Source: a virus (lineage: Duplodnaviria; Caudoviricetes). From it: a stretch of DNA of 64,000 bases. Under the pieces are notes generated by a model. It worked only from the letters and a program-made list of their open reading frames with translations. It made no database searches and was not told where the DNA came from. Below are positions 455-63,993 of this stretch, piece by piece. Made by a program: the position numbers and the translations under genes. Position 1 is the first letter of the stretch; every line of letters begins with the position of its first letter. The stretch lies in the IMG/VR virus record IMGVR_UViG_3300027286_000002. One strand, written 5' to 3'.

Positions 455-3400
455 CTACTTTAAAGTGCCATTAACTTTATTTGCACGGATATTTAACCAA
501 TAGTATCTACTAGATCGTAAATCAAAACTATCAATAGTATCTTCAAGGAAAGACTTTAAAGCACTAGGTAGAGAATTGAGATAGCCATCTAAAATTAAGA
601 AAGGATCTTCAATATAATATCTTCGATCAAGGATGCTGAGTCTTTGATTAGTAGGTGTATAAGGATATATATCTACATTGCCTATAATGTCTATGAATTG
701 AGGATTAGTAATAGTAGTAGTATCATCTAAACCTAAAATATCAAGATCAGATGAAGTGGCATAACCAGCATAGAAGAAATCTTGCCATGTAGATAAATAA
801 GGTTGAGAGGCATATAAAGAAGAAAGATTATAGACATAAGATAATAATCTTTCATAAAGCAGGTATGCAATGCAAGGCAAAGGAAGATCATTAGATTGAG
901 AACTTAGTTCTACAATAGACCATTGAGCAATAGGAATATCAACAGTAGGAATAAGACTAAAAGGATAATCAGTAGGGTAAGGATTATCATAAGAAAGATA
1001 ATCAGTACCTATTACAGGATCAAGAGTTAAAATTCTAGTGTTCGTATCTATTTCAACAATGTGATAAAGACCACGATTATCATCAAGAGTAGGATGATAA
1101 GAATTAGATCTAGCTTCTGCTTGTGGATTAGGATAAATGAAAAGGTATTGACCTGTCTTTAGAATAGAAATATCTTCGGATAAAGGGAAAGGGAATTGGT
1201 TAGTATTTGTTATAGATACAGTAGTGTTAGAAGATAGGATAAGATTTTGAGTGATGAGATCATTATTGATAAGCTGGATAAGAGATTGTTCTATAGGTCG
1301 AGAGGATTGTTTATAGGCATAGTAAAGAGTGTTGCTAGTAGGAACTACAGATTGGTCGAAAATAAGACAGGTAAAATTAGATGGATAATTAATATTAGTG
1401 ATACGAGCGAAAGGAGTAGAGGATTGGTAAAGAATATCACCAATAGAAAGAGCAGTGATATTAGTAGGATAATTAAAGGTTTTTAAGTATGGATTGAGAG
1501 TAGTGATGGATGTAGCTTTGGTTTGGATTCTTAGGTAGAAGTTTTTAATGTAGTCAGCTTGAAAGGAAGAGAATTTTTTATCAAATCGTCTAGTTCGTCT
1601 AATAGAGAAAGTGACAGGTAGAGTAAGGTCATTAGGTAAAGGATTGTTATTAGGTAAAGGATTTGGGAAAAGGTATGTATTGATGTCATTTAAATAAGTG
1701 CTGTAGGTGGTGTTTGGATTAGCAAGATTAGCATTAAGCAAGCTAGGTGCAGTAGAGTTTAGTTTAATGGCAGGTGTTGTTATTGAGTATGTAAGTGTAG
1801 CAGTGGTTATATATGCTCTTAAGAAGAGAGTAGGAGATGAGAAAGTGATTTTGTTATTAGATGTAGTGTTTGTATTAAAGAATTTGGTATGGTTGTTAAC
1901 AGTGGCATTGGCATTAAAAGGGAAGGTAGAAGAAAAGTTATCAAAGTCTACGATGGTTTGACCTGTGACATATCCTGATGTTAGGTTGATGGGTGTTAAG
2001 ATAGGAGTAGTGGTGTTTGTAGCATAGTCATATTGAACAATAGTACCAATAGAGATAATTTTAGTGGTTGGATTGTAGCTAGTGCCTGTGCATTTATAGA
2101 TAGTTTGATCTGAATCGATTTGGATAAAGATAGTTGTGTTAGTGAAAGTAGAAGTATCGAAATCATCTGTCATTTGGATTTGAGTATTATTAGCAGAAGA
2201 GAATTTAGGAAAGGATGGATTGAGATTGATGGAAATAGTAGGTGTTAATGCAGTTTCTTGAACGATACCTATAAGAGAAATACCTTTAAAGAAAACAAGA
2301 TCATTAGGCAGGACATTAGTGATGGTGGATGAGATATTAAAGAGAGTGAGATAATAAGCAGGATTAGATGAGTGATGAAAATAGGCTGTGTAATTAGTAG
2401 GTAGGTTGGATGAAGTGTCTACTTTAGCAGAGGTAAAGAGATTACCTTTAATATTACTGTATGGTAGAGTGGTGTTGCCTTTGCCAAAGAAAGAAGGGAT
2501 TTTAAGAGTGTGTGTGGAAGGTTGGGAATAGAAAGTGTATGGTTGAGTAGCATTAGCAGAAAAAGAAGAATTAGATGCAATAGATTGGATAGATGTAGAA
2601 GAAGTATTTAAGTCATAATAAGAAATATCAGTGATACCGATAATGAGTTCAGTTTGAACATTAACAGAGTCAATGGTTGAATTATGAGGTGCAAAATAAG
2701 AGAAGTTTAGATATTGGTGTGAGATAGAGCAACGATCTTCATTAATAGAAAGGTTATTATCATTATGGAAGGCATTATTGGAATGGTTATTAAGAGAGCA
2801 GGTGAAAGGGATCATGGTATTAAGAGGAATATCAGGAGTAAGACCATAAATAGAAGATAAGATGCCAACAGTTTGAAATTTAATTTCATTAATAGTGGAT
2901 AGGTCGAGATTAGAGATATTATAGCTTGTGGGGGATGAGATGGATGTGATGACAGACCATTGCGATGTACCAGCATTATATGTGAATTGGATGCAAGTGT
3001 CTGTGAATGATTGAGATTGGATAAATTTAAAGATGATAGGAGTTTGTTGAGTATTAAAAAGAGAAGTGAAATCGTAATTAGATGCAGATGGTACAAATTT
3101 TAATCTGTATTGATAAACTATAAATGGGAAAGCAGAAATCTGGACAGGCGAGTAGACAATAAATTCATTGCCTGTGATGAAGTTAGAGATTTTGTATTCT
3201 ACATTATTGTTATTAGAGTAGATATTCATTCTAGGAATAATGAGTTCTGATTCGCTAGAAGATTGGAAGTAGCCTTGTTCTTTAATGATGGTAAGGTCGT
3301 TTTTATCTGTTGGATTAATATTATCAATAAGAGTACCTGTAGTCGTGTCGATATTTAAATCAAAGCGAATTTCATCTGGGTAGACAGGATTTGACGAGTA

Positions 3401-6400
3401 GGTTTTATAGAGGATGTCTTTAATATCTCTAGTAAGTCTATTAAGGAGTTCTCTTTCTTTGCCATTGAGATTATTGTAAGGGATAGTCATAAGACCTGAA
3501 TCATTTTTATTAAGACCATTAAGAGCAGGCAAATCTTCAAAAGGTTTAGTATCTGTGTAGTTAAAGAAAACATCACCTTCAAGACATTCATTAGGACTAG
3601 GTGGATTTTGATTAACAAATTCTTTAATAGGCAAGTTTGGATCATTTAGAGAAGGATAGCTATTATCAATGATGCTACCTGTTTTATAATTTACTTTAAC
3701 ATCAAATCCGATACGATATTCAAAGAGAGTAGGTGTTTGGTTATCGATATCACCACCAGATAAATTTTGGATGATGGTTTGACCAAAGGTAGCAGATAAA
3801 GGAATATTATCAATAATAGGATTAGTAGTATTTAAGACAACATAGCAACCTTGTTTAATATCGCTGACAGTCGCATTACGATAGTCAAAAGTAAAATCAA
3901 CAACCACAGGATTATTTCTATCTTTAATAGAAGTGAAAGTGTTATTGTCATTGCTAAGAGCAAGCAGGTTGCCTATAGATAAAGGTGGAATAACAAGATC
4001 AGGATTACCTGATTGGACAGAATATGTAGAACCATTAGGAATAAGTTCATTGGTATTTGGCAGACCTGTATCTGGATCAATAGGAAATTCACTTAAAGGC
4101 ACGGAAGATAAGATAAAAGTAGGATTGGTAGAGATACTTGCATAGCCTGTTTTAGAGTAGTCATAAACAAAATAAGCACCTGCTCTTTTTCTAAGAGTGA
4201 CAGAAGAGATATTAGTGATAGGATTAAGAAGAGGATTAGAAATAGAACCTATTCGCTTGCCATAGGTATCAAGAAAGTTAAAATCACCATCACCTAAGAA
4301 ATAAGCAGATTGCATTTTTTCAGGATAAAGTCTTGAAAAGACACTATCTTTGCACATGGCTTTCCAAATGAAATACAGAGTGGAATTGATACCTAAGAAA
4401 TAATAAGTAGAAACAGATTTAGTGTCTGTTAAAACAATATCATCAATATCATTATAGATCATAGATTTTTGTTTATTGATAATCGTATCGATTTGAGATG
4501 CACTAGGTGTAGATCCACCTGTTAAACCACCTGTCAAAGAAGAAAAAGATGCACCTATTTTAATAGGATCAGTAGGTAAAAGATAGGTGCTAGGATTTTC
4601 TGTATTAAGGATTTCCAAAGCAACATATCTAGGATTTAATTGTCTAGTGAGAGGATCTTCTAAACCTGTGCCAAAATAATCAGAAGTTGCTTGAATGATT
4701 TCAAATTTAAAAGCACCATCTTGATCACCAACAGAGCGATCAAGGTCAAGAGTTTCAAGATTAGTGATTACTTGATTATAATCAGATAAATTTTTACGAG
4801 CAATCACATCTTTAGCTAGATCATCATAAATACCTAAACCTACACCTTTTGGTGTATCGCCAAAGGACTTTGATCTACCATTAGTTTGTGGACTGTTAAA
4901 ATTGATTTCAGTTTCATATTCAGATTGTTCTACTACTCTTAAATAGAATTGGTCTTGTGCATTGACCACACATTTGGCAAAAAGTTTTTTACCTGTATAT
5001 GGTGATTCGATATATTGATTGAAGTTTGCTTTATATGTAGGATAAATCAATCTGCCATTAGAAAGAAAAGGACTTAAACTTTGAGGTCTAGTGTGAAAGA
5101 AATAGTAAGCAACATTAGGTTGGACAGAGTGATTAAGATTTAATTGGATTTCACCTGTGGCATCATTAATAGAATAGTCATAGTTCACTACCAATTCACT
5201 GCCTATGCCATATTCCATATCATATTTAATAAGTTTGTAGTCTTGATCAGATAAGAAAGATTTCGCATAGATTTTAGTATCGTTTTGGTTATATACAGGT
5301 CTTGCACTAACTGTGATCACAGGTTCACTGCTAACATTAATGCTTAAAACACTTGTGAAAGTGATAATCGTTTTTGTTAGATCATCAGATAAGCGAATGG
5401 ATTTTACTTGGTAGCAATCTGTATCTAAAAACATCAAAGTGTTTACTTGAATATATGCAGTAATATCTTCACTAATGGTAAGATTGCTGGATAAAGGTTT
5501 GGCATTAATCACATGGTTATTATTGCCTGTGAGAGAACTTAAAGCAATAAAGATATTTTCATTAGATAAGACAAAGATTTTAGGATCATCACTAGGTGAT
5601 CTAGCACCACTATCAAATTTAGCTGGTGTATCAAAAGTGACATTAGTTTTACCATTCGCATAGGTAGCAGTATCTACAACAAAAAATTCAGTAGTGGATT
5701 TGATTACAGAGTTTGCTTTAATGATATTTGTGTAGTCGCCATAAATATCAAATCCTGTACTGCCTTTAGTGATTTGCATTAAAGGCAACCAAATAGGATT
5801 AACAACTTTAATTGTGTATTCACCACCTATTGCTTGTTTAACAGAATAAGAAATTTTGACTGTGTAGTCTTCTGTGTTTTCACTAGGTAAGGTTAAGATA
5901 TTTGTTGTGTAGTCGAAAGTAGGAATTTTAGTGTTATCAAAGATACCTACAATTTCAGCACCTACATAAACTTGTGGACTAACTGTCTGTTCTATTGTGT
6001 AGGCATTAGGATTAAAGCTGTATTTAGATGAAGTGATTTTAGTGGTCGTTTCATTTTGAATAGTGAAAAGAATAGGCTCAACAATTTGAGTGTTTTCATC
6101 CGTGTAATATTCAACTTCAATACCAACACCTGCATCCAAAGGACTTAAGAAAGAAATATTGCCACCTGTGGTTTCTACAACATAATCATCAGTAGAGATT
6201 TCTTCAATGATGTATGCAGGTTTATTAAGACCATAAAATTCACTTGTTGTTTCAGATGAGATCAATACTTCAATATTTTGATATGCTAATGGAATAAAGA
6301 CAACATCACCTGTAATAGAAGATAGGATATTAGATAAAGTGATTTCACCTGTGATACTGTCAATAGAAACATCAGATGATGGTGTGTCAAAGACAGGTGT

Positions 6401-9034
6401 GTATAAAGTAGCATCACTACCTACACGGATTTTAAATTCTAAAGCTAAAACTCTTGGATCAGTAATATCAACAAAGCATTGGTCGGTAGATAAACCTAAA
6501 GCAATATCTTTAAGGACAGTAATAGGCTGTTCTGTATTGTCATTATATCTAGCAATCAGATTATCTAGAGTAGAGCATTTAGCAGTGATGATTTGTTTAA
6601 GAGTGTTTGTTGTAGTCGCATGAACTTTCTTAACCTTTAAGAATGATCTTACATTATTAAGAGAAATAAAACATTCGGAAGTTAAGAGTGTTGGATCAGG
6701 TTCTGAATATCCTTTATATGCTTTCCAAGTAGTATCGGAAGGCATACTAGATAAAGTGAGTGTAACACCATCTACTTCATTTACTTTAAAGAAGTTTGAG
6801 TTCGTTTGAATCCAATCATTCGGATTAATATCATAGGTGTTATCTAAGACATATAGGTTATCATTGATAATGGCATTATAGCCTTGTTCAATTTGTTTAG
6901 AGTATCTAGTGAAGTATCTAGCAAAACCTGAAATATTTGTATCAAAGGTTTCATTCTCAATAAGATTAGCTGTGTATTTATCTTTGGTTAAAGTGATAGA
7001 AGTGGATTGATCAACAACACCGGGCTCAAGATCAAGAATGGTAGTAGGTGTATCTATTCTTCTAGTTCGTGTAATATTCCTAATCCAAGCAAATTTGCTT
7101 TCATTAAAAAGGTGTTGGATTTCTACATCAGCTGTTAAAGTATTCTTACCTACTTTAAAGAAAGTATTCGCATCATAGCCATCATAATCTTCTCTTGGGA
7201 TAAAATCTAAAAAGGCATAAGTGGATTGAATGATTTCTTTACTGACTTGAATATCATTATAGAGAATGTTGCTAGTGAAATCATAATCTGCATTGTCATT
7301 ATTTCTTTTTTGTAGATCTAAATAAAGACCTGTGGTTAAATACCAATCAGTAAGAATTTGATGTGCAACAAAACCTAATGCCTGTAGGATTTCTAAATCA
7401 GAAGTGTTTAAGATTTGAATAGATGAACTAGCTTTAAGCACAAGGTATCTATTTTCGGATTTAATAGGATTATTAGAAGATCCTAATAGATTGTCAAAAT
7501 GGTCTTGAATTTCCCATGCTTGTTTACTGCCAGCTAAACCACTAAAATTAAGATTTCTAGTGATACCATTGATAACTAATCTAAGTACACCACCTGTGAT
7601 TGTGTATTTGTCTTGTTTAGCTGAGTAAATTCTGAAATCACTACCTTCATTATATTTGGTGTAGGATTTAAGAGGAATAGCACTTTGCACAAAATAAAGA
7701 TATCTACCCTGTTGAAAGGATAAGAATGTAGATTTAAATTCAATATTGATAGTGAAGTCGATAGCATTTTTAACAAGTGTCAAATATGCTTTAGACCATT
7801 TAAGTTCATTTGGTACATCTTCATAGGTAGGATAAATATTGACATCAATCATATCACCCACATTATTGGCAACATAATTATATTTATTTAAGACTGCAAT
7901 CTTTAAACCACTGCCATCAGGTCTTGAACTTGTAGGATCATCACCTGTTGGTAAAATACCTGTACCATCTGCAATAACATCAAAGCCTGCTGTGAAGTTT
8001 GTTTTAGGATTAACTTTGCCATTCTCAATTAAGACAGGTTCAACAAAAGAAATAGGTTTAGAACTTAAGACAAGACCATCATAATAAAGAGTGTAGTTAT
8101 TAGGATTGAGTAAAGAAACCTTGCTTGTTTGTTTACTGATATATGCAATCCCTTTTTCTAAAGATAAGGGAAAAAGATTTTCATCATCATAATATTGAAC
8201 TGAAAGATATTCTCTATTGCCTAATCTTAATAAAGGTGTTTCAAATCCTTGTGGTTTAGGTGAAAGGTAATAAGCATCATATACAGGATGGACGATACCA
8301 TCTGACATATCTAGTGATTCATTAAAAAACCAAATCTCTTTACCTGCATTCGCTTGGATAAAGCTATCTTTAAATTGAACTTTATTTTGATCAACAAAGA
8401 TAACAGCATCAAAAGTACCATCGAAAGTAAAAGGATCAGGTTTAACAGAGAACTTTTTAGTTTCAGTTTGGATAAGGTCTTGACCAACATAAATAAGACT
8501 AACAAAGACATTATCTTCATCAATAATACCTTTAGGTAAAGTGTATTCAGATGTGTCTGGTGTTAAGATACCTAAGCTAACAGGTGACCCACCTTTTAAG
8601 AGTTTCCAATTTTGACCATCCCATTCAAATCTTTGTTTAGATGTATCATTTCTAGTCCAGTGAAATAAAGGTTCTTCGAGATAGAAATTTGCATCAGTGA
8701 GATTATTAACAAGAGAGTAGAAAAGATTAGGTTTAAGGAATTTGGTGGAAGTGGCAACAGGACTTTTAATAGCATCATAGGTTTGGATTTTGTATTCATA
8801 ATAGTTGCCATCCATATTACCTGTTGCAGTGATAGAGTAATTGCGAACAGGATTTAAAGACCATGCGATTTTAGAGTTATTAGTTGAGATGAGAAGATAT
8901 TCAACTTGACCTTGATCAAAGCATAAAGTACCTTGACGATAGGCATCACGATTACCAATAAATCTAGTCGCAAGGCTTGTAGTAGATTGGTTAGTGTTAG
9001 CATTTTTTGTATCTAAAATGATTTTACTAGACAT
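455..9034 (-). CDS. Giant putative virion structural protein (2859 aa), tail/baseplate associated
   Basis: Very long ORF, beta-rich S/T/N/D/I composition, no enzyme motifs, directly downstream of 9042..9602; function inferred from composition and context. Confidence 0.6.
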   Translation of the reverse strand: MSSKIILDTKNANTNQSTTSLATRFIGNRDAYRQGTLCFDQGQVEYLLISTNNSKIAWSLNPVRNYSITATGNMDGNYYEYKIQTYDAIKSPVATSTKFLKPNLFYSLVNNLTDANFYLEEPLFHWTRNDTSKQRFEWDGQNWKLLKGGSPVSLGILTPDTSEYTLPKGIIDEDNVFVSLIYVGQDLIQTETKKFSVKPDPFTFDGTFDAVIFVDQNKVQFKDSFIQANAGKEIWFFNESLDMSDGIVHPVYDAYYLSPKPQGFETPLLRLGNREYLSVQYYDDENLFPLSLEKGIAYISKQTSKVSLLNPNNYTLYYDGLVLSSKPISFVEPVLIENGKVNPKTNFTAGFDVIADGTGILPTGDDPTSSRPDGSGLKIAVLNKYNYVANNVGDMIDVNIYPTYEDVPNELKWSKAYLTLVKNAIDFTINIEFKSTFLSFQQGRYLYFVQSAIPLKSYTKYNEGSDFRIYSAKQDKYTITGGVLRLVINGITRNLNFSGLAGSKQAWEIQDHFDNLLGSSNNPIKSENRYLVLKASSSIQILNTSDLEILQALGFVAHQILTDWYLTTGLYLDLQKRNNDNADYDFTSNILYNDIQVSKEIIQSTYAFLDFIPREDYDGYDANTFFKVGKNTLTADVEIQHLFNESKFAWIRNITRTRRIDTPTTILDLEPGVVDQSTSITLTKDKYTANLIENETFDTNISGFARYFTRYSKQIEQGYNAIINDNLYVLDNTYDINPNDWIQTNSNFFKVNEVDGVTLTLSSMPSDTTWKAYKGYSEPDPTLLTSECFISLNNVRSFLKVKKVHATTTNTLKQIITAKCSTLDNLIARYNDNTEQPITVLKDIALGLSTDQCFVDITDPRVLALEFKIRVGSDATLYTPVFDTPSSDVSIDSITGEITLSNILSSITGDVVFIPLAYQNIEVLISSETTSEFYGLNKPAYIIEEISTDDYVVETTGGNISFLSPLDAGVGIEVEYYTDENTQIVEPILFTIQNETTTKITSSKYSFNPNAYTIEQTVSPQVYVGAEIVGIFDNTKIPTFDYTTNILTLPSENTEDYTVKISYSVKQAIGGEYTIKVVNPIWLPLMQITKGSTGFDIYGDYTNIIKANSVIKSTTEFFVVDTATYANGKTNVTFDTPAKFDSGARSPSDDPKIFVLSNENIFIALSSLTGNNNHVINAKPLSSNLTISEDITAYIQVNTLMFLDTDCYQVKSIRLSDDLTKTIITFTSVLSINVSSEPVITVSARPVYNQNDTKIYAKSFLSDQDYKLIKYDMEYGIGSELVVNYDYSINDATGEIQLNLNHSVQPNVAYYFFHTRPQSLSPFLSNGRLIYPTYKANFNQYIESPYTGKKLFAKCVVNAQDQFYLRVVEQSEYETEINFNSPQTNGRSKSFGDTPKGVGLGIYDDLAKDVIARKNLSDYNQVITNLETLDLDRSVGDQDGAFKFEIIQATSDYFGTGLEDPLTRQLNPRYVALEILNTENPSTYLLPTDPIKIGASFSSLTGGLTGGSTPSASQIDTIINKQKSMIYNDIDDIVLTDTKSVSTYYFLGINSTLYFIWKAMCKDSVFSRLYPEKMQSAYFLGDGDFNFLDTYGKRIGSISNPLLNPITNISSVTLRKRAGAYFVYDYSKTGYASISTNPTFILSSVPLSEFPIDPDTGLPNTNELIPNGSTYSVQSGNPDLVIPPLSIGNLLALSNDNNTFTSIKDRNNPVVVDFTFDYRNATVSDIKQGCYVVLNTTNPIIDNIPLSATFGQTIIQNLSGGDIDNQTPTLFEYRIGFDVKVNYKTGSIIDNSYPSLNDPNLPIKEFVNQNPPSPNECLEGDVFFNYTDTKPFEDLPALNGLNKNDSGLMTIPYNNLNGKERELLNRLTRDIKDILYKTYSSNPVYPDEIRFDLNIDTTTGTLIDNINPTDKNDLTIIKEQGYFQSSSESELIIPRMNIYSNNNNVEYKISNFITGNEFIVYSPVQISAFPFIVYQYRLKFVPSASNYDFTSLFNTQQTPIIFKFIQSQSFTDTCIQFTYNAGTSQWSVITSISSPTSYNISNLDLSTINEIKFQTVGILSSIYGLTPDIPLNTMIPFTCSLNNHSNNAFHNDNNLSINEDRCSISHQYLNFSYFAPHNSTIDSVNVQTELIIGITDISYYDLNTSSTSIQSIASNSSFSANATQPYTFYSQPSTHTLKIPSFFGKGNTTLPYSNIKGNLFTSAKVDTSSNLPTNYTAYFHHSSNPAYYLTLFNISSTITNVLPNDLVFFKGISLIGIVQETALTPTISINLNPSFPKFSSANNTQIQMTDDFDTSTFTNTTIFIQIDSDQTIYKCTGTSYNPTTKIISIGTIVQYDYATNTTTPILTPINLTSGYVTGQTIVDFDNFSSTFPFNANATVNNHTKFFNTNTTSNNKITFSSPTLFLRAYITTATLTYSITTPAIKLNSTAPSLLNANLANPNTTYSTYLNDINTYLFPNPLPNNNPLPNDLTLPVTFSIRRTRRFDKKFSSFQADYIKNFYLRIQTKATSITTLNPYLKTFNYPTNITALSIGDILYQSSTPFARITNINYPSNFTCLIFDQSVVPTSNTLYYAYKQSSRPIEQSLIQLINNDLITQNLILSSNTTVSITNTNQFPFPLSEDISILKTGQYLFIYPNPQAEARSNSYHPTLDDNRGLYHIVEIDTNTRILTLDPVIGTDYLSYDNPYPTDYPFSLIPTVDIPIAQWSIVELSSQSNDLPLPCIAYLLYERLLSYVYNLSSLYASQPYLSTWQDFFYAGYATSSDLDILGLDDTTTITNPQFIDIIGNVDIYPYTPTNQRLSILDRRYYIEDPFLILDGYLNSLPSALKSFLEDTIDSFDLRSSRYYWLNIRANKVNGTLK

Positions 9035-9041: not shown

Positions 9042-9602
9042 TTATCCTATTTTACAGATGATTGGTGAAACAGAAGGTACTACACTAGCAGATCCGATGA
9101 CTGCACCAATACCTGTACCTGTGAGAAATAAGTTGCTTATACTAAGAGCAAAGGCATTTAAAAGCAAAGGATTTGGATTAGGTATTCCACTAGCAGGGAA
9201 AGCAGATTGTAAACTTGCTAGTAGAGTTGGATAAGGTGCAATGATATTAACAATAGCACAAGCACCTGTGCCCACAATAGGACTAATACCTGTAAATTGC
9301 ATAGGTAGAGTGCTTAAGCAAGTAGCAATCGCTTGAGCCATAGCAGTGGTGTTGGAGCTAACAAGACCATTAGCAATAAAACCTGTTAATGCTAATGGTG
9401 TATTAGGAATGATAATAACTTTACCATTAGCAGTGCCTACACCTAAAGTACCTGTGCAAGTGGCATTAGCGAAAACAGAAGAATTAATCCAATTAAAGAT
9501 ACCTAGACCAAGAGCATTAGTGGATAAGATCCAGCTTTGACCTTTAAGAGCAGGATTACTTGCAAGTAATGTAGATGCAATTAAAGGTGGTGAAATTGCC
9601 AT
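9042..9602 (-). CDS. Hydrophobic A/G/S/T-rich protein (186 aa), probable virion component
   Basis: Clean ORF 7 bp upstream of the giant gene; almost no charged residues. Confidence 0.5.
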   Translation of the reverse strand: MAISPPLIASTLLASNPALKGQSWILSTNALGLGIFNWINSSVFANATCTGTLGVGTANGKVIIIPNTPLALTGFIANGLVSSNTTAMAQAIATCLSTLPMQFTGISPIVGTGACAIVNIIAPYPTLLASLQSAFPASGIPNPNPLLLNAFALSISNLFLTGTGIGAVIGSASVVPSVSPIICKIG

Positions 9603-11011: not shown

Positions 11012-14000
11012 TTAGCAAGAATGTCTAACTTTATAAATGACATTTAAATATTGTTCAATCATGGTTTGGTCAAAGGTATCATCTTTTCTACTTTCCAACC
11101 AATTTTTAAGTGGCTGTGAAGCACCTATTTTAAAGTCGAACATGGCTTGAGAGATATTATCAAAATAGCTAGTCTTATTGAAATACACTTTATCTGTATC
11201 AAAGAAGATTTTCTCAATCTTATTATTGGTTGTGGCATTGTATGTAGATGTAGTATCTTGAGTAGTATCATCTAGGTGGATGACTCTTAACTTACTACCT
11301 GCATCTTTATATTGGATGAAAGTAGCAATAGATTGTGGATAAGGTACTCTTGGATAATTTGATTTAAGGAATTGGTTATATTTAGTAGTGTATGCTTTAT
11401 CGTTAAGGACACCATAGATATAATCCATAGTATCGAGAGAAGAGAAGGTTTGGTCTGTAGCTAGTGTGGGTTCATCTTGGTGAGATTTAGAGATTGCTTT
11501 CCCAAATTCGTTTAGAAAGTCAGTTGTGAAGTTAGATGATTGAGATGCAGGCATAATGCTACTGCCTTCATTATAGAGAAATAAAGGTGTAGAGTGAACA
11601 CCTCTGTCACCTTTAAAGAATTTAATATCAGGAATTGTTTTTGTGTATTGTATATGTGCAAAATTATCTTCAAAACAGGTTCGAGAATAAATTAAAAATA
11701 TTTGCTCTTTCGCTTGCTCATGTTTTTTGATTTCTTCTCTTCTACGAGCTGTCAATTTACTATCAAAGTAATGTCTAGTGTCAAAAACTCTATATGTTAA
11801 GGTAGAGAAAATACCATCCTCTTTCTTATTTATAGACTGCTGAATTTTCCTAGTGTTTACTGTTTCTGAACAGTCTAAAGGTAAGATACTATTTTTTAAA
11901 TAATTTTCTATTTTCATAGAAAGTCTATCTGAATTAGTATCTAAAAGTAAATTATCACAACCTGTTGTGATACCAATACTGCTTTCTTTAAAGCAATGTT
12001 CTAAAGAAAAACTATTTTGGTCGTATTCACTTTTAATAGAACTTTCTTGATAATATAAGTAATATTCAGGCTTGAATATCTCTATTTTTATAAAATTATT
12101 TTCCGAAATTGAATTTGTTTCCAAATATTTAAATTTACCTTCCTTTGAGCCTTTAATTTCATGATAGTGTACACTAGCCAAATTACCTACTACTTTCTTA
12201 TTAGTCTTAACGAAGAATGAGATGCACACAGGTGTCTTGATGTTAAAAACATTTTCATCTTTAAAATTAAGAATGTAAATCTCATCAAAACTTTCTAATA
12301 AAGACTTTCTCATATTTGTCATACCAATAGAAGATAAGAAACTACTGTTGGAAATATAAGCTACTACACCACTGCCATTTTGATCAATAAGATTCTGTGC
12401 ATACCTAATAAACTTAATGTAGTCATCATTTAAAGCACCACTGCTACCTTTCATAGCATAATCACCCATGAGATCATTAATAAACTTGCCATTATTCTTA
12501 CTCCTACCATTATAAGGTGGATTGCCAAGAACTACCATCACAGGCTGTTCTTGTCTTACTCTATTTGCTCCTATTGCCTCTTCATTTAATTGATAAACCA
12601 AATCACTCACACTCAATAAATGCTCTTCTACATCCACTGCACCATTTAAGGTGTTTGTTAAGTAAATGTTAAATCTTTCTGTATCTTCACTTAAACTGTC
12701 TTTTAATAACTCATACATCTTCATGTGTGCCATCACATAAGAAGGCATCATCAATTCAAAACCATTTAATCTAGGTATCAAATCTTTATTCACATAATCA
12801 TTCCATAAAGAAGGATACTTGTAATTACTCTTGATATATGAAACTACTGAATTTAAAAAATTGCCTGTGCCTGTCGCAGGATCTAAAATCTGTACCTTAT
12901 GCACATTTTCTTTATTTACCATTTCTGTTTTATATGAGTTTTCACCTACCTTTACTTTTTTATTGTAGGTATAGGATTGCTTTTCACTAGATGAAATACC
13001 ATCTTTAATAGCAAACTTAGTCTTTAAGATTTCATCTACACCTTTTACAATATAGTCCACTACTTCTACAGGTGTGTACCAAACACCCATTTGCTTTCTT
13101 AATTCAGGATCATATTGCTCTAAAAAATTCTCATAAAAGTGAATAACTATATCATTGTTAGCCAGCTTTAAAGATGAAATGATTTTACTCATATCCGTGT
13201 TAGCTAAAATGGTTGTGATTGCATCTATCAAATTATTGATGCTTTGGGATAACTCATTCTTATCATTGCTAATGGTATCAAAGAATTGCTTTAATAAAGG
13301 ATTGGTATTTGGGATAAGATTTGAAGCATCTGATCTAGTAAAGATAGCATTTGGATCTTTTTGGAAAGCATAATACCTTGATGCAAATAAACCATAACTT
13401 AAAGTTTGTGCATAAAGGTCTGCAAATTGACTGTTATCAATATCTTCAATAAGCATCTTTTTAAATTCATTTCTATATGCCACCAGCTTGTATTTCTTTT
13501 TGGTTTTAATCTTTTGCTCAATTTCAAGATCATCAGTATTTAAAGTAGATAAGATGTCTGCTTTAAGTAGCTTAGTTTTATCTGCAAGTTTTTTAGCTAA
13601 TGCCAAAGGATTATTAAAATGGATAGTGCTTGCCATGAAGTTATCTAGCAAGGTATTAAACTTATCAAAGCTGGCAGGATTGGTTTCATCTAGTTTGCAT
13701 TTATCTAATAGGATGCCATCTTGGTAAAATTCAAAGTCAATAAAGTTAGTGATAAGCAATTTAGGAAATGCCTGCTTATATCTATTGAATTGGTCTTGAT
13801 GTTTTTTATGAGATAAATCTTCATTAAGGTTTTTAGTTTCAATATAGAAAGCTACCAAAGAGTTTTGAGTATAGACTTCCATATCAATTTTATTTTTACC
13901 TTTGCCTGTTGGTTCATCAGTAAAGACAAGACCTTTAAGAATAGATTTAAGAGCAGGACGATAAGAGTATTCAGAACCATTACGAGATTCGATATCTTTA

Positions 14001-14026
14001 AGTTGGTTTAGGTATGTAGTAAGCAT
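11012..14026 (-). CDS. Fused restriction-modification enzyme, type IIG/ISP-like (PD-(D/E)xK nuclease + N6-adenine MTase + C-terminal specificity domain)
   Basis: IDM..IETK nuclease-like motif, GVWYTP, ILDPATGTGNFL (SAM-binding), VLGNPPY (catalytic), C-terminal DYIYGVL..Y..KY..FLK..YPRVPYP and KIG..QP..NWL..RK typical of the type ISP C-terminal family; no helicase domain. Confidence 0.85.
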   Translation of the reverse strand: MLTTYLNQLKDIESRNGSEYSYRPALKSILKGLVFTDEPTGKGKNKIDMEVYTQNSLVAFYIETKNLNEDLSHKKHQDQFNRYKQAFPKLLITNFIDFEFYQDGILLDKCKLDETNPASFDKFNTLLDNFMASTIHFNNPLALAKKLADKTKLLKADILSTLNTDDLEIEQKIKTKKKYKLVAYRNEFKKMLIEDIDNSQFADLYAQTLSYGLFASRYYAFQKDPNAIFTRSDASNLIPNTNPLLKQFFDTISNDKNELSQSINNLIDAITTILANTDMSKIISSLKLANNDIVIHFYENFLEQYDPELRKQMGVWYTPVEVVDYIVKGVDEILKTKFAIKDGISSSEKQSYTYNKKVKVGENSYKTEMVNKENVHKVQILDPATGTGNFLNSVVSYIKSNYKYPSLWNDYVNKDLIPRLNGFELMMPSYVMAHMKMYELLKDSLSEDTERFNIYLTNTLNGAVDVEEHLLSVSDLVYQLNEEAIGANRVRQEQPVMVVLGNPPYNGRSKNNGKFINDLMGDYAMKGSSGALNDDYIKFIRYAQNLIDQNGSGVVAYISNSSFLSSIGMTNMRKSLLESFDEIYILNFKDENVFNIKTPVCISFFVKTNKKVVGNLASVHYHEIKGSKEGKFKYLETNSISENNFIKIEIFKPEYYLYYQESSIKSEYDQNSFSLEHCFKESSIGITTGCDNLLLDTNSDRLSMKIENYLKNSILPLDCSETVNTRKIQQSINKKEDGIFSTLTYRVFDTRHYFDSKLTARRREEIKKHEQAKEQIFLIYSRTCFEDNFAHIQYTKTIPDIKFFKGDRGVHSTPLFLYNEGSSIMPASQSSNFTTDFLNEFGKAISKSHQDEPTLATDQTFSSLDTMDYIYGVLNDKAYTTKYNQFLKSNYPRVPYPQSIATFIQYKDAGSKLRVIHLDDTTQDTTSTYNATTNNKIEKIFFDTDKVYFNKTSYFDNISQAMFDFKIGASQPLKNWLESRKDDTFDQTMIEQYLNVIYKVRHSC

Positions 14027-54683: not shown

Positions 54684-57600
54684 ATGGCTGATAATTTTGG
54701 AACAGAAGTCAGTAGAGTTCTCAATAATCAAAACACTAAATTTACACATCTCATTTGGCAATCAGGTAAACCACCTTTGGATTCTGAATTAAACTTTGTT
54801 GGACAGCTTGCCAATGATTCTTTAATTGATGCAATTAAACAAACTACACCTAGTGGTTTTCTTGCTGATCCTATTAGTGCGATTGATTTTGAATGTAATC
54901 CTTTAGATAGCAATCAGTTCAGATTAAATTCTATTGATGCTATTGTTAATGGTATGCCTATTCGTATTCGTGGCTGTAATACGAATAGTGAAACCTCTAA
55001 CATCATTAAATTATCTGCACCACCTGCCACAGGCAATCGTGTAGATTTTGTTTTCTTAGAAGTTTGGCGATCTTTAGTTAGTCCAAATCCTTCTACTGAT
55101 TATAAACCTAGTGCTATTACTTTCTATAAATATGGCAACACTCAATTTGGTGGTACTAATATTACAGATGATCTTATTGATAATGACATAGGATTTGAAA
55201 CCACTAAACGAGTTCAAATTCAATATCGTTTAAGAGTAGAAACTAATATTGATATTGACACTTATCCACAAGGCTTAGGTGATCCATCTGTTTTTGGTCA
55301 AGGTAATTCTATTAATCCTGTGACAAGTGCAGTATATACTAATATGGCAAGCGAAGGTGATCCATCCTGCTGGAAAGCATCATCTGTTGATTTTGAATCA
55401 ACAGATAATTATTCCTATGCTATTCCTATTTGTGCTGTCTTTAGACGATCTACTTCTTCTTATATTGCTGTTCTTAATGGTTCATCACCTACACATAATG
55501 GTGCATCTGTAAGATCATCATCTACACCTAAAACCTTAACACAAGCTATTTTATCTGCAAGTTTGACTTCATCTGCTACTACTTTAAATTTAGGCAGTTC
55601 TATTGTAGGCAGTGGTTTAGATGAAGGTAATTCTGTAGGTGATTATCTAGTTTTAAACACAGGCATTAATAAAGAGATTGTTTTGATCTCTAGTGTGAAT
55701 GTAGGCACAGGTGCTATTGTTATTGTTCGTGGTCAATTAGGTACTCAAGCTAAATCTCATCTAGCATCTACACAAGTGAGTTTATATAATGCAAGACCTG
55801 ATGGTTTATATGCAGATCAAATTCATGAACAAGATATTTTAGATTTGATGAATAGCATTTCTTTAACAGGATTTGATTATTCACAGCTATTGCAAAATGC
55901 AGTAAATGACTTGATCACAAATAATTTAAGAACAACTTGGAAATCAAGTGCTACAGGCAGTGATAGTAAAGGTATTACTTTGGCTCAAGTGGATGTTATT
56001 GGTAATCCTAATACAACAAGACCATATACTGAAATTTTAGATGCTCCAAATGGTATTAGAACAGTATGGTCAGATAGTGCAGTGGTTGAGAAAAATGTAA
56101 ATATCATTATTGATCCAGCTACAGCTTTAAATGATGATGGTACTACTGTTGGATATTTTGATAGTGGCTTAACAGACAATTGGACGATTAGTGCAGATTT
56201 AAAACCAACAGGTTTTATGCCTAGTGTAGATATTGGTGGTGGTACATATCAACAAGCATGGTCAAGTGGTGCTGTCATTTTCTTAAACTTAGGTGGTCTT
56301 GATGGTCAAAGTGGTGCAAGAAAAGGTTTTAAGAATAATCAAAAAGCAGTTCGTTTCTTAACTGAATCAGAGGAAGATTTAAAGCTATATCTTATTAATG
56401 ATAATGGATATACCGATCCATTCACCAAAAAAACTCTTTTGCCTGTACTATCAACTTTTGCAGGTTATCCATCTAAAGTAGAAATCTTTGGTGGTCTTGT
56501 ACACTCATCTTTAAAAGTTACAGGTATTTCAACAGTCTTAGCTGATCTTCAAATTAAAAGAATTTCTAATAGTGCAGATGTCAATCTTGAATATTATTAT
56601 GAAATTGATTTAGGTGTAAATCTTGCAAGTTTACTTGATGGTACTACTAAAGTTTTAGGTAATGAATCAGTAGCTGATCTTCTTACAAACTATGGTAAAG
56701 ATAATACAGGCTTTAGTTCTGAATTATTTGCTATTGTTTATGGATCACCTAAAACACAAAACAACCAATCCTTTCAAATTATAGGCATGGGAAAAGATGG
56801 TTTAACTTCTAGTGAAACTGATGCTAGTGGTTTAAATACAAATTCTACCATTCGCTTACTTCGTTTAAATGGTGCTTTCTCTAATTGGACAGAAGATACA
56901 GATGGCAATACTTTAACAGTAGAAATCAGAACTAGAAGAACTTATGCTTTTGATGGTACTACTGCTACTGATCCTTCTTTATGTATCGTCTTGCCTTATC
57001 ATACTGTTTATGAAAATAATGCAGTATCTCAAATTTATGCTACTGAAGGCACATACTCTACATCTAAACTTTTAATTAATGCTACTTTACAATATGCACC
57101 CGGTCACAGTGGTCTTGCTCGTTCACCTGATCAAATCCATAATGTGTCTTTAAGAAATAAAAGCACAGCTTATCTTAGAAATGCTATTAGTGATCTTGAT
57201 GCTACTCAAACTATTTTTGAAACAGACCTTGTTAAATATGATGCCAATACTCATATTCAATTATGGAATGCTTTAGCATCTAAAAATGCTGATCCTAGTC
57301 CTACAGGTAATCTTAATACTTTTGGTGGCAGTGTTATTGGTGGTGCAGATATTGATCGTAATAATGAAATCTTTGCTGATCCAAATTCTAAAACTTTAAT
57401 TCTTAAACCTTTTAAGCAACATAATCTATTATTGCAATCCTTCCGTGCAAGTACATCTACTGATTTGCTTTTAAGTCAATATTATCAAGATGGTGTCACT
57501 GATAAAGATGGTGCAGGCATCTTCACAGGTGCTGGATTGCCTCAAGATTATTTTGAATTTCCACCTATGCACCTACCTAAATTTGGTAGACAGGATATTC

Positions 57601-59828
57601 CTTTCCATACAAACACAGGTTTAGGTGATCCTTTCTTAAATGGTTTACATCATCTCTTTATTGACACTAATACAAATACAGATGATGTCTATAATATCAT
57701 TGGTGGTGATAGTAATGAGGGTTCAGCTGGTGTTGAGCCTATGCTTTTCTACACTGCTATTGATTATGGTACAAGTGATGATATTACTACAGGTCATCCA
57801 TCTTTAGGTGCTAGAAAAGTTTCTCTTGAAATCCCAAGTACAGACTTTGGCAATATCTTAAATGGTATTGAACTGCCACCTTATCATGGTCTTGCTCGTG
57901 TTTATGGTGTATATGAAAAAACAGATTACCTTGCTAAAGTAGGTTCATCTGTAGCTGGTGGACATGAATCAGATCGTGTTACTCCTATTGCAAATCCACC
58001 TATTAATTTATTAAGAACAGATGCTACTAAATACACTATGTTTATTAGACAAGATGGTGCAAGTGATGTAGCAGACACAACAGGCAGTCATACTTATATC
58101 TTAACAGAACATTCTCTTGATATTCGTAAAATTCCTACTTATGTAGCAGGCGATGAATTTGCAGATTTTGATTATGTAGTAGAATGCTGTGTCTTTGGCT
58201 TTGCAAATGGATTTATTAATAAGAATAGCTTTATTCTCATTCGTAAATATGATGGTGCTGGTGTTGAGAATGTAAATCTCACTACCTTACCAACAGAATT
58301 ACAAAATGTGGATGTTGTTATCCCTTCACCTTTTGGATCAGCAGATGAACTTTATGTAGAGTATTCAAGAACAGCATATCAAGGTGATATTTACCATACA
58401 AGAGGAGGATCAGTTGCAAATTATAATGATGAAGTTATTAGACAAGGACAACTTAATCCAAATGATCACTATTATGGTGGACTTACAAGAAAACAATTTA
58501 ATACAGATGGTTCATCAGCTATTACAATCACTAATCCAAGAGGATTTGCAGTGCTTGCATCTATGGATTTTTATTTGACATTAGGTACAGGTAATATCGG
58601 TGGTACTCTTTATGAGAACACAGTAACAGATATTGGATATGAATCTACACATACACCACCAACTGCCTTAAATCAAGAATTGATCCATATCAAAGCAAAA
58701 GCCTTTAATGGAAAAGAAATTGGATTAACAAATGCTACTGCTACTTTAGTTTATGTAAAAAATAAAATTGTAGATGGTGTCTTACAAGTAAACCATTGCT
58801 ATATTACAATCACATTGCCTAATGGTACAATTAAATCAGATGACTTTGCGATCACTAATGTTTTCACAGATGAGAGTTTAGCATCTACCATTATTGACAC
58901 AGTAGGCATTTTATCTGACTACATTATTAGTGGATCATATACAATAGATCTTTATGTAAATAGAATTGTGTTTACATATATGGAAAAAGGTGTGATTGGG
59001 AATCAAGCTCAAATCTCTATTTATTTTACCTTCCCTGTAAATCAAAATAAGTTCACATATAAATTAGGTGTAGATACTTTATATGCCACAACAAAAGTGT
59101 ATATGACAGGTGGCACAGGTATTCAAAATAATGCAGGCAATGGATCACTTGACTCATCTTTAATAGGCTTAACATCTCGATTGCCATTAGGTTTACTTGT
59201 AAATGATTATGATTTCTTATGTGAAGATATTCTTAATGATGGATCAAGCTATTTACAATCTACTTTAGGTAGTGTTAAGACTGCTAATATCTCTTTACCT
59301 ATTGGTAGCAATGGTCTTGCTTATTCTAAAGTGAATGGTGTTGCTGGTGATGCTCTTATTATGAGTGAAGCAGTAAATGATACATATATTGCTTTTACTG
59401 ATCTTAGTCCATCAGGTACTAAAACCTATAGAACACATCGTGGTGCTGTTTTATTTGGAGCATCAGGTAAAGTTAAAGGTGGTGCTGTTTCTTATGTTGT
59501 CACTAGCTTTCCTACAAGTGTACAACCTGTCCTTAAAGGTGGTGTTTTAGCTTGTAAAGCTATGCTCGTTCAAAACTTTGATGAAACTGCATTTACTACA
59601 GATGATGAAGTATCTTATGGTAGTGAATTACAATTAGTTATCATTACACAGGCAATTTACAGATCAGATGTGAATCAGGCAATTACTTTACAAGGTAGTA
59701 TTTCACCAAGTGGATATGGTGAAGGATATGCAAGTGCAGATAGATTTAATATTAAAGGTAGACCTGTGATTAAGAATAAAATTCAGAAACCTGATTTAAC
59801 AATTAGTCCTGCACCATTTACAAGGTAA
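54684..59828 (+). CDS. Large baseplate/tail structural protein (1714 aa), paralog of 48137..51031
   Basis: LIWQSGKPPLDSELN, VFLEVW, KRVQ.QYR.R, RPDGLYAD. Confidence 0.65.
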   Translation: MADNFGTEVSRVLNNQNTKFTHLIWQSGKPPLDSELNFVGQLANDSLIDAIKQTTPSGFLADPISAIDFECNPLDSNQFRLNSIDAIVNGMPIRIRGCNTNSETSNIIKLSAPPATGNRVDFVFLEVWRSLVSPNPSTDYKPSAITFYKYGNTQFGGTNITDDLIDNDIGFETTKRVQIQYRLRVETNIDIDTYPQGLGDPSVFGQGNSINPVTSAVYTNMASEGDPSCWKASSVDFESTDNYSYAIPICAVFRRSTSSYIAVLNGSSPTHNGASVRSSSTPKTLTQAILSASLTSSATTLNLGSSIVGSGLDEGNSVGDYLVLNTGINKEIVLISSVNVGTGAIVIVRGQLGTQAKSHLASTQVSLYNARPDGLYADQIHEQDILDLMNSISLTGFDYSQLLQNAVNDLITNNLRTTWKSSATGSDSKGITLAQVDVIGNPNTTRPYTEILDAPNGIRTVWSDSAVVEKNVNIIIDPATALNDDGTTVGYFDSGLTDNWTISADLKPTGFMPSVDIGGGTYQQAWSSGAVIFLNLGGLDGQSGARKGFKNNQKAVRFLTESEEDLKLYLINDNGYTDPFTKKTLLPVLSTFAGYPSKVEIFGGLVHSSLKVTGISTVLADLQIKRISNSADVNLEYYYEIDLGVNLASLLDGTTKVLGNESVADLLTNYGKDNTGFSSELFAIVYGSPKTQNNQSFQIIGMGKDGLTSSETDASGLNTNSTIRLLRLNGAFSNWTEDTDGNTLTVEIRTRRTYAFDGTTATDPSLCIVLPYHTVYENNAVSQIYATEGTYSTSKLLINATLQYAPGHSGLARSPDQIHNVSLRNKSTAYLRNAISDLDATQTIFETDLVKYDANTHIQLWNALASKNADPSPTGNLNTFGGSVIGGADIDRNNEIFADPNSKTLILKPFKQHNLLLQSFRASTSTDLLLSQYYQDGVTDKDGAGIFTGAGLPQDYFEFPPMHLPKFGRQDIPFHTNTGLGDPFLNGLHHLFIDTNTNTDDVYNIIGGDSNEGSAGVEPMLFYTAIDYGTSDDITTGHPSLGARKVSLEIPSTDFGNILNGIELPPYHGLARVYGVYEKTDYLAKVGSSVAGGHESDRVTPIANPPINLLRTDATKYTMFIRQDGASDVADTTGSHTYILTEHSLDIRKIPTYVAGDEFADFDYVVECCVFGFANGFINKNSFILIRKYDGAGVENVNLTTLPTELQNVDVVIPSPFGSADELYVEYSRTAYQGDIYHTRGGSVANYNDEVIRQGQLNPNDHYYGGLTRKQFNTDGSSAITITNPRGFAVLASMDFYLTLGTGNIGGTLYENTVTDIGYESTHTPPTALNQELIHIKAKAFNGKEIGLTNATATLVYVKNKIVDGVLQVNHCYITITLPNGTIKSDDFAITNVFTDESLASTIIDTVGILSDYIISGSYTIDLYVNRIVFTYMEKGVIGNQAQISIYFTFPVNQNKFTYKLGVDTLYATTKVYMTGGTGIQNNAGNGSLDSSLIGLTSRLPLGLLVNDYDFLCEDILNDGSSYLQSTLGSVKTANISLPIGSNGLAYSKVNGVAGDALIMSEAVNDTYIAFTDLSPSGTKTYRTHRGAVLFGASGKVKGGAVSYVVTSFPTSVQPVLKGGVLACKAMLVQNFDETAFTTDDEVSYGSELQLVIITQAIYRSDVNQAITLQGSISPSGYGEGYASADRFNIKGRPVIKNKIQKPDLTISPAPFTR

Positions 59829-59840
59829 CAAAGTAAATGA

Positions 59841-62193: not shown

Positions 62194-62208
62194 TCGTCCT
62201 TTCGTTTT

Positions 62209-62607: not shown

Positions 62608-62649
62608 TTTCCTTTTTTTGAAAAGTGGTTTTGTCTTATTGATACTACT

Positions 62650-62682
62650 TAAACACTTAAGATTAAGATTTATTGCAAGTCA
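62650..62682 (-). promoter_or_regulatory. Conserved promoter-like motif copy 10
   Basis: GACTTGCAATAA-N13-GTGTTTA-AG-TAGTAT. Confidence 0.75.
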
Positions 62683-62724
62683 GATAAAAAAGATTATAAG
62701 AAAAAAAAGAAAGCAGGTGTTTAA

Positions 62725-63069: not shown

Positions 63070-63156
63070 GAGCCAAGCAAACCTACTAGATATATAAATA
63101 ATGCCTCTTTACTTAAAAAGAATAAAGCTAAACAAATTAAAAGATGCTTAATCATT

Positions 63157-63993
63157 TTACAAAGCTGTCCATTTCTCTTCATTATTAGGTGCATTATCTA
63201 CTAATGTAGGAAAAGCACTTTCTACTGTTGTTATTCGTGGATTATTAAAATCCCTGCTTAGATTTGTATCTAAATTAGGATAAACAATATTGTCTATGTT
63301 ATTTACAATGAAACTTAAATGATGTGTATCTGAATATGATTCACTATCAAATAAAAGACTTGGTGTGACACCACCTACTGCACCTAATAAGATTTCATCT
63401 CTTTCTTTGACCAGCTGTTCTCTTAAATCGCATAGCTTAATAATTCTTGCCTCAAGATCATTTCTCAATTCTTTAATTTCCTGTGGCAACCATCTTTTAG
63501 CTGATTCGACTGCATCACTAATCTCTTTGCCAAAGTCATACATATTTAAATTCTTGCCAAACTTTCTAGGTGGAAATTTCCATAATGGCAACCAACCACC
63601 TGTACTTAATGTACCTGTTTGTGGATTTTTATCTGGCTGTGGTGCAATGATACCCGTGTAAGGCTGTGTTTCAATAATTTGTTCATCACTGTAAAAATAT
63701 GAATCTGGTTTTAAGAACATAGAAATATCAAAAGGATTTCCACCTTGCACAACATAAGCAATAATGAGTTTATGCAGGCTTGATCCTTTATTGACTTCAA
63801 ATCCTATTCTTCTTTCTGTCATTTTACTTGTAGAACCATCTTTTAAAAAAGATACACGGATATATCCTATTTGTGAAAGTTCATTGTTAATAACTTTCAA
63901 TCGTGCTTCGACATTTCTTCTTTGGTTTAAAGCAAAGTTTCTGAACTCATACCAACTACCTTCTCTAAAATAAACAGACCAAGCAAAAGACAT
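63157..63993 (-). CDS. Hypothetical protein (278 aa) with C-terminal coiled coil
   Basis: Long clean ORF; no recognised motif. Confidence 0.65.
   Translation of the reverse strand: MSFAWSVYFREGSWYEFRNFALNQRRNVEARLKVINNELSQIGYIRVSFLKDGSTSKMTERRIGFEVNKGSSLHKLIIAYVVQGGNPFDISMFLKPDSYFYSDEQIIETQPYTGIIAPQPDKNPQTGTLSTGGWLPLWKFPPRKFGKNLNMYDFGKEISDAVESAKRWLPQEIKELRNDLEARIIKLCDLREQLVKERDEILLGAVGGVTPSLLFDSESYSDTHHLSFIVNNIDNIVYPNLDTNLSRDFNNPRITTVESAFPTLVDNAPNNEEKWTAL

Follow-up and report, generated by a model that had tools for sequence, protein, structure and literature searches.

Near-absence of Ala-Ala and of its DNA word GCNGC in a jumbo phage genome depleted of many restriction-type words

Removal of target motifs from the genome is an established way of countering restriction (PMC12707154; PMC6286503). 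Restriction-site avoidance in virulent double-stranded DNA (dsDNA) phages was described by Sharp 1986, Karlin 1992 and Rocha 2001, as cited in a 2021 review, according to which the avoidance comes about by synonymous mutations, which leave the encoded sequence intact (PMC8410138). Codons and amino acids are not mentioned in the survey of Rusinov et al. 2018, in which GCNGC mostly escapes avoidance (CB<1 in only 22.5% of pairs; PMC6286503). A comparable process is known from vertebrate RNA viruses, which suppress CpG to evade ZAP (Takata 2017, as cited in PMC8410138). In this study, we focused on the word GCNGC and the dipeptide Ala-Ala (AA) in a 64,000-bp stretch (the window) of the jumbo phage record IMGVR_UViG_3300027286_000002. 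As in phage restriction-site avoidance, palindromic words of 4-6 bp and Type IIS-like words lie far below composition- and codon-aware expectation, and the pattern is lineage-specific and differs between relatives. Unlike the avoidance described in these works, whole dipeptides are lost, at least 25 words are affected at once, and non-synonymous replacements can be traced in orthologues. The likeness to ZAP evasion is that a short motif is purged genome-wide to escape a host defence that reads sequence; there the target is one dinucleotide and the change synonymous, whereas here many longer words of DNA are involved at a cost to the proteins. The phage carries a known avoidance strategy to an instructive extreme and does not reveal a new mechanism. 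A full-text search of a limited library, which does not prove novelty, turned up no paper on dipeptides being lost through restriction avoidance.

The window comprises bases 116765-180764, minus strand, of a 195,689-bp IMG/VR record with 32.0% GC and an estimated completeness of 63%; the genome-wide counts below refer to about 63% of the genome of a probably lytic dsDNA phage (195,689 bp; ~61,000 residues). An exact search found no GCNGC on either strand of the window, against 56.8 +/- 8.0 expected from 100 dinucleotide-preserving shuffles. A greedy set of 52 non-overlapping open reading frames (ORFs), covering 95.5% of the window and holding 20,321 residues (5.4% Ala), contains no AA, against 59.4 expected from composition and 63.8 +/- 7.3 when residues are shuffled within proteins (minimum 41 in 2000 shuffles). 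The spaced pair A-x-A is enriched in these ORFs (88 versus 59 expected); since it is not depleted, the AA effect is specific to adjacent Ala. These counts bear out a sequence-only reading of the window, which had reported both absences and had cited the sheath and the 186-aa protein as Ala-rich examples. The features concerned are as follows (window coordinates; W is A or T, S is C or G).

455..63993, no strand: whole coding span of the window; 0 GCNGC, GCWGC, CCWGG, ACGT, GCGC, CGCG and CCGC, and 0 AA in any ORF
28189..33237, minus strand: gene of the giant tail sheath (1682 aa), in which the orthologue tests were made; 132 Ala, AA 0 versus 10.4 expected
9042..9602, minus strand: 186-aa Ala-rich protein (12.9% Ala); AA 0 versus 3.1 expected
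54684..59828, plus strand: 1714-aa protein; 110 Ala, AA 0 versus 7.1 expected
455..9034, minus strand: 2859-aa protein; 114 Ala, AA 0 versus 4.5 expected

The same reading had spoken of total avoidance, which holds for the window and becomes near-total in the rest of the genome. The whole record contains 13 GCNGC, all between genome positions 3.5 and 97 kb, and 13 AA among 61,301 residues, where ~200 are expected. In coding DNA, 247 +/- 15 GCNGC are expected under a codon-order shuffle and 40 +/- 5.5 under a synonymous shuffle, and by exact count neither the word nor the dipeptide comes near its expected frequency in the window or elsewhere in the genome. Each of the 13 GCNGC is an Ala-Ala codon pair read in frame. 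None lies out of frame, where the synonymous shuffle gives 15.4 +/- 3.9 GCWGC and 12.1 +/- 3.0 GCSGC, and none lies in noncoding DNA (~3.5 expected). The depletion works on the DNA word, in all reading frames and in noncoding DNA, and not on the peptide. The surviving AA pairs sit in conserved motifs, in a UvrD helicase (Walker A region), an SNF2 helicase (motif V), a terminase-like protein (TerL, ATPase domain), a DUF5824 protein and an intein-containing protein. The genome thus retains Ala-Ala where a protein cannot do without it and nowhere else, in a spelling that dodges GCWGC.

Residual sites are unevenly distributed along the genome. AA occurs 13 times against 112 expected in 1-97.5 kb and 0 times against 90.5 in 97.5-196 kb; leftover GGCC, AAGCTT, GTATAC and ACTAGT sites also lie mostly below 110 kb, and the window falls in the clean part. 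Conserved enzymes, recently acquired genes or the order in which the DNA enters could explain the clustering in the first half.

The fate of individual Ala-Ala pairs was followed in the tail sheath, which has more than 490 homologues on freshwater and marine jumbo-phage contigs of up to 375 kb; the homologues carry the Pfam sheath domains PF17482/PF04984. In the outgroup clade of 38 members, sheath AA is at or above expectation (e.g. 34 versus 23.8); the sister clade has 7-11 against 12-14 expected, and the eight members of the clade of the query, down to 62% identity, have 0-1 against 7-12. On a maximum-likelihood sheath tree the AA-poor state (<0.2 of expectation) needs at least 11 changes, a figure that includes some noisy calls at ~10 AA expected per protein. 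Ancestral AA was defined, in a 120-sequence alignment, as AA present in at least two sister and at least three outgroup sequences. At the six positions so defined the query retains AA in none, compared with 62 of 165 control dipeptides.

32554..32559, minus strand: sheath residues 227-228, SG (TCA GGA); AA in 4 of 5 sister and 10 outgroup sequences
30877..30882, minus strand: sheath residues 786-787, DA (GAT GCT); ancestral AA
30169..30174, minus strand: sheath residues 1022-1023, PA (CCA GCT); ancestral AA, with AA in 23 outgroup sequences
29965..29970, minus strand: sheath residues 1090-1091, AG (GCA GGC); ancestral AA
29104..29109, minus strand: sheath residues 1377-1378, GA (GGT GCT); AA in 5 of 5 sister and 46 outgroup sequences
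28840..28845, minus strand: sheath residues 1465-1466, AS (GCA AGT); ancestral AA

Positions that are AA in the sister clade appear in the query clade as SA, AV, PA, AG, TA, GA or AS. A wider comparison gave the same picture: when all ORFs of L013, a locus of the sister clade, were searched against the query proteome by BLASTP, 12 of its AA pairs aligned and one was conserved, the others having become AG, TA, GA, SG, SA, AL, PA or AS, while one-Ala dipeptides were 38% conserved. In most replacements one Ala is kept and the other is changed by a single nucleotide, mostly by transversion. These alignments support the proposal of the sequence-only reading that selection on the DNA word rewrote proteins; silent codon choice was not all that it altered.

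GCNGC is one of many missing words. The following counts refer to genome coding DNA, with expectations from the codon-order shuffle unless a first-order Markov model is stated.

CCWGG: 1 versus 142 (116-142 across nulls)
ACGT: 0 versus 231 (219-248 across nulls)
GCGC: 0 versus 83
CGCG: 0 versus 29
GGCC: 6 versus 125 (84-125 across nulls)
ATGCAT: 0 versus 80
GAATTC: 1 versus 54
AAGCTT: 3 versus 77
ACTAGT: 1 versus 43
GGTACC: 0 versus 20
GGATCC: 0 versus 16
ACGC/GCGT: 1 versus 153 (first-order Markov)
ACTGG: 3 versus 221 (first-order Markov, both strands)
GTCTC/GAGAC: 13 versus 206 (first-order Markov, both strands)

Words of restriction type are under-represented against composition-, dinucleotide- and codon-aware nulls. 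The avoided set consists of short palindromes or of words that known restriction enzymes recognize, and other words of like composition are spared: GATC (858 versus 697-769), TGCA and CTAG are not avoided, so the purge is not a general effect of composition. The RCGY tetramers ACGT, ACGC, GCGT and GCGC occur 0, 0, 1 and 0 times in 196 kb, and other CpG contexts (YCGR etc.) persist (ACGA 312, TCGT 318, GCGA 215).

Some further observations concern these words. Two other asymmetric words of Type IIS-like form are rare (CCCAG 4 versus 116 and AGGGG 3 versus 94; both strands, first-order Markov), and the ACTGG/CCAGT sites within the window lie at genome positions 172104 and 152520. The window has one ACGC, at 30805, and no ACGT, GCGC or GCGT; we know of no obvious common Type II enzyme for the non-palindromic ACGC/GCGT. 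The four 4-bp palindromes made of G and C alone have all been purged, CCGG being left almost exclusively within Pro-Gly. Among the twelve that contain A/T, ACGT alone is missing, while GATC shows a slight enrichment. Together with the presence of several adenine methyltransferases and the lack of a C5 methyltransferase match in the record, this hints at a division of labour in which adenine sites are methylated and cytosine-only sites deleted, a partial one, as many adenine-containing 6-mers are avoided too.

The consequences for the proteins extend beyond Ala-Ala. When all 400 dipeptides were ranked without bias, the five lowest were AA (0.06 of expectation), WP (0.17), PG (0.23), PW (0.25) and GP (0.27), and these are the dipeptides for which there is no spelling free of an avoided word. 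The residual words in the genome are correspondingly forced: Gly-Pro accounts for 33 of 34 GGWCC, Trp-Pro (TGG CCN) for 4 of 6 GGCC, and Pro-Trp for 5 of 7 CCWWGG and for the sole CCWGG, while 29 of 31 CCGG lie inside Pro-Gly. Pro-Gly is spelled CCS-GGN in 29 of 29 cases, though CCC and CCG together make up 5% of Pro codons. In the window, the seven GGWCC sites are its seven Gly-Pro pairs, all forced; they are listed here together with Pro-Gly and Trp-Pro pairs.

7019..7024, minus strand: Pro-Gly, CCC GGT, with a rare Pro codon by which CCWGG is dodged
27103..27108, minus strand: Pro-Gly, CCC GGG
33205..33210, minus strand: Pro-Gly, CCC GGT
34186..34191, minus strand: Pro-Gly, CCC GGG
41799..41804, plus strand: Pro-Gly, CCC GGC
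42820..42825, plus strand: Pro-Gly, CCG GGC
57099..57104, plus strand: Pro-Gly, CCC GGT
20036..20041, plus strand: Trp-Pro, TGG CCC, the only Trp-Pro and only GGCC of the window
20307..20312, plus strand: Gly-Pro, GGT CCC, forced GGWCC
20448..20453, plus strand: Gly-Pro, GGA CCC, forced GGWCC
37465..37470, plus strand: Gly-Pro, GGT CCC, forced GGWCC
37863..37868, minus strand: Gly-Pro, GGA CCG, forced GGWCC
37929..37934, minus strand: Gly-Pro, GGA CCC, forced GGWCC
38028..38033, minus strand: Gly-Pro, GGA CCC, forced GGWCC
38748..38753, minus strand: Gly-Pro, GGA CCT, forced GGWCC

The loss of GCNGC is not uniform over its central base. GCWGC occurs once, against 158.8 expected from the CpG-aware first-order Markov model and 217 from the codon shuffle. 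GCSGC occurs 12 times against 14.8 in the first-order model, which accounts for the scarcity of CpG (observed/expected ~0.28 genome-wide); GCWGC is depleted beyond that scarcity and GCSGC is not. GCS codons are 313 of 3517 Ala codons (8.9%), yet the surviving AA pairs are spelled GCS in 12 cases and GCW in one (P = 3e-12), so that the forced sites comprise 12 GCSGC and 1 GCWGC, though 91% of Ala codons end in A or T. No avoidance of GCSGC in its own right can be demonstrated: its rarity follows from that of CpG, and the remaining AA pairs have shifted into it. A GCS-GCN spelling always creates CCGC or GCGG plus a CpG. CCGC/GCGG occurs 21 times against 81 expected (first-order Markov), and 12 of the 21 are Ala-Ala pairs while 9 are unforced; codon pairs of the form xGC-GGD are missing altogether (0 versus 50 expected, or ~14 after a general factor for CpG at codon boundaries). 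The most economical reading is a near-absolute pressure against GCWGC together with a strong pressure against CCGC and CpG, the union of which is GCNGC.

We consider it likely that this jumbo phage has been under long and strong selection to shed the target words of many sequence-specific host nucleases. The selecting nucleases would most likely be Type II restriction enzymes, both their agency and their identity being inferred, whereas the counts, reading frames, choice of codons, replacements in orthologues and recurrence were observed directly. Where the code allows, the words would be removed by silent change; where every synonymous spelling of a dipeptide holds an avoided word, the protein would be changed instead. 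GCA- or GCT-GCN contains GCWGC (TseI/BbvI-type), which would be essentially forbidden, and GCC- or GCG-GCN contains CCGC/GCGG (AciI-type) and CpG, both strongly avoided; because these spellings together cover all GCNGC, Ala-Ala would be lost. One Ala of each pair would be swapped for a one-nucleotide neighbour (Ser, Gly, Thr, Pro, Val or Asp), and the exceptions would be a few catalytic motifs in which Ala-Ala persists, spelled with GCS as the lesser harm. By parallel reasoning, CCWGG would account for the loss of Pro-Gly, GGWCC/GGCC for that of Gly-Pro, GGCC for that of Trp-Pro and CCWGG/CCWWGG for that of Pro-Trp. ApeKI recognizes GCWGC, BbvI GCAGC and AciI CCGC; with the Fnu4HI (GCNGC) and TseI (GCWGC) specificities they cover every Ala-Ala codon pair. 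The GCNGC specificity of M.Fnu4HI and the GCWGC specificity of TseI are documented (PMC12707154 and PMC6329791, respectively).

Several points weigh against this explanation. The avoidance of GCSGC is statistically inseparable here from that of CCGC and CpG, as the 9 unforced CCGC give no power, and an enzyme for GCNGC may have acted alongside one for GCWGC, which is compatible with the counts. AA is more depleted than PG (6% versus 23% retained), though each has a CpG-containing escape, a difference that we attribute to the presumably easier substitution of Ala. No avoided word could be tied to an enzyme, and the evidence comes from sequence, of about 63% of the genome.

An alternative agent is restriction that depends on modification (Type IV/IIM). 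The cytosine methyltransferases of the hosts would mark GCNGC/GCWGC, CCWGG, ACGT, GCGC and GGCC on progeny DNA, BisI-, TagI-, SauUSI- or McrBC-like enzymes of the next host would cut there, and removal of the methylatable words would escape both marking and cutting. TagI cuts DNA modified by M.Fnu4HI (GCNGC), Dcm (CCWGG) or M.HpyCH4IV (ACGT), i.e. at sites carrying 5-methylcytosine (PMC12707154), and these three words are all missing here; BisI-family enzymes cut methylated GCNGC (PMC8281217). An orphan methyltransferase that makes N4-methylcytosine in GCWGC is known in lake and freshwater Chloroflexi, in work that used TseI as the GCWGC-specific enzyme (PMC6329791). The purging of all four G/C-only 4-bp palindromes, with most A/T-containing ones left, also agrees with it. 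However, the adenine-target Type II 6-mers (GAATTC, AAGCTT, ATGCAT) and the Type IIS-like words (ACTGG, GTCTC) fit orthodox restriction better, and sequence cannot tell the two agents apart. We regard this alternative as possible and rather unlikely.

The preferred explanation, selection by many nucleases, was further compared with the proposal of the sequence-only reading that one host system specific for GCNGC (Fnu4HI-type) was the sole cause of the Ala-Ala loss. Relatives of the phage serve here as natural experiments; their GCWGC and GCSGC counts are given as observed/first-order Markov expected where this was computed, and AA as observed/expected.

L013, sister clade: GCWGC 15, GCSGC 0, AA 15/19.2; all 15 GCWGC are its AA pairs; 19 CCWGG, PG normal
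L002/L010, 316-kb relative with 84% identity: GCWGC 1, GCSGC 6, AA 3/40.8; keeps 13 CCWGG
L012, 62% identity: GCWGC 0, GCSGC 0, AA 0/16; CCGC 0 versus 19 expected, CCNGG nearly absent (1 CCWGG)
L021, GC 52%, normal CpG: GCWGC 0/24, GCSGC 28/16.5, AA 17/22.6; all AA spelled GCS
L017, neighbour of L021: GCWGC 0/14.4, GCSGC 1/4.3, AA 1/14.4
L015, GC 48%, CpG and CCGC normal: GCWGC 2/39, GCSGC 5/20.2 (P = 6e-5), AA 5/34.6; true avoidance of GCNGC
L033, basal to the L014/L017/L021 subclade: GCWGC 64/49, GCSGC 59/36.5, AA 72/51; GATC 1 in 25 kb

Avoidance of GCWGC or GCNGC arose at least three times on the DNA evidence, the set of avoided words changes fast between relatives, and the survival of Ala-Ala depends on whether the GCS spelling is affordable. 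A sole GCNGC system accords with the overall counts in window and genome, with the complete absence of out-of-frame GCSGC where the synonymous shuffle predicts 12.1, and with L015, where true GCNGC avoidance exists at normal CpG and CCGC. However, uniform pressure on GCNGC would not give the 12:1 excess of GCS over GCW spellings, nor is GCSGC depleted once CpG is taken into account, so a single GCNGC system is not supported. CCGC/GCGG is depleted outside GCSGC too (9 unforced versus ~80, and none in L012), and the query lineage differs from its sister L013 in GCWGC, not in GCSGC, of which both L013 and the window have none. A Fnu4HI-type system alone fits worse than GCWGC plus CCGC/CpG, no such enzyme has been linked to the host of the phage, and we consider it improbable as the only cause. 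The avoided word did not serve to fingerprint the host, as the same reading had further suggested: the purge takes in 25 or more different words, a breadth indicative of many systems or hosts, and no host came to light.

The relatives differ in other words as well. L033 has 4 CCWGG against 64 expected, yet normal GCNGC; L014 has no AGCT; L018 is without ACGT, GCGC and CGCG but has 94 ACGC/GCGT. At L010:19595-20851, four GCNGC (1 GCWGC, 3 GCSGC) lie within 1.3 kb without long ORFs in a relative otherwise free of the site, and this cluster may mark a recently inserted piece, an RNA or a regulatory region.

Mutational decay, in which C-methylated words are lost by deamination of 5-methylcytosine as in the loss of vertebrate CpG, would require no selection by nucleases. 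The low CpG ratio and the fact that several avoided words are known targets of C-methylation are consistent with it. However, the transition neighbours of GCWGC show no excess (1.31-1.36, versus 1.0-2.1 for transversion neighbours), those of CCWGG stand at 0.66-0.79 versus 0.9-2.1, and most Ala-Ala replacements (SA, PA, AG, GA, AS) need transversions. Moreover, adenine words such as GAATTC are purged too, and the loss is essentially complete even at an amino-acid cost, which makes decay a very poor candidate. Selection on Ala-Ala itself at the protein or translation level (a protease site, a ribosomal or a tRNA effect), with the lack of GCNGC as a by-product, is hardly credible: GCNGC is also missing out of frame (0 versus ~27) and from noncoding DNA, the surviving AA pairs switch codons rather than being tolerated at random, L021 keeps normal AA without GCWGC, and PG, GP, WP and PW obey the same logic of DNA words.

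Near-identical copies of the phage were found in river, lake and freshwater metagenomes of 2019, 2024 and 2025, and close relatives that were independently assembled likewise lack GCNGC. An assembly artefact was ruled out by this recurrence across runs and years and by the independent assemblies of relatives. Megablast of the sheath gene against INPHARED phages gave no match, and PHROGs had nothing for the sheath or most structural proteins. Beyond the window, a 1711-aa ORF (genome 67039-72174, plus strand) has at its end a Gly-Gly-Ser-Cys motif, then a hydrophobic stretch and lastly a basic tail, an arrangement similar to a C-terminal sorting signal; a pattern scan of the genome contig collection found no close cellular relative of this host-like surface protein.

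The window also encodes a 1004-aa N6-adenine methyltransferase fusion of Type IIG/ISP-like form.

11012..14026, minus strand: 1004-aa methyltransferase fusion (PF18135 5e-47, PF02384, PF07669, PF20473)

It has N6_Mtase, Eco57I/MmeI-type methyltransferase and Type ISP C-terminal specificity domains, besides ~370 N-terminal residues. The protein is context for the anti-restriction investment of the phage and is not GCNGC-specific. The record contains two matches of N6/N4-type methyltransferases and several adenine methyltransferases; within its 195,689 bp (~63% of the genome) no C5 methyltransferase (PF00145) was found, and PF02086 had no match either.

Avoidance is normally described as silent and at the level of codons, whereas in this phage it forbids amino-acid pairs across ~61,000 residues. 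Host immunity at the DNA level can constrain the protein sequence space of phages, and deficits of dipeptides can flag restriction pressure in metagenomic phage proteins without a known host. Pairs of relatives such as L021 and L017 show how base composition and tolerance of CpG decide between silent escape and amino-acid cost. Gene finders, protein language models and composition-based host predictors may be biased on such genomes. We are inclined to think that restriction systems are a measurable driver of non-synonymous phage evolution, that purges of N-centred 5-bp words, differing from lineage to lineage within a large clade of aquatic jumbo phages, have time and again stripped whole proteomes of AA, PG, GP and WP, and that dipeptide spectra record the restriction repertoire faced. 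If this is true, the record would be readable from protein sequences alone and could be used to date shifts of host or defence.

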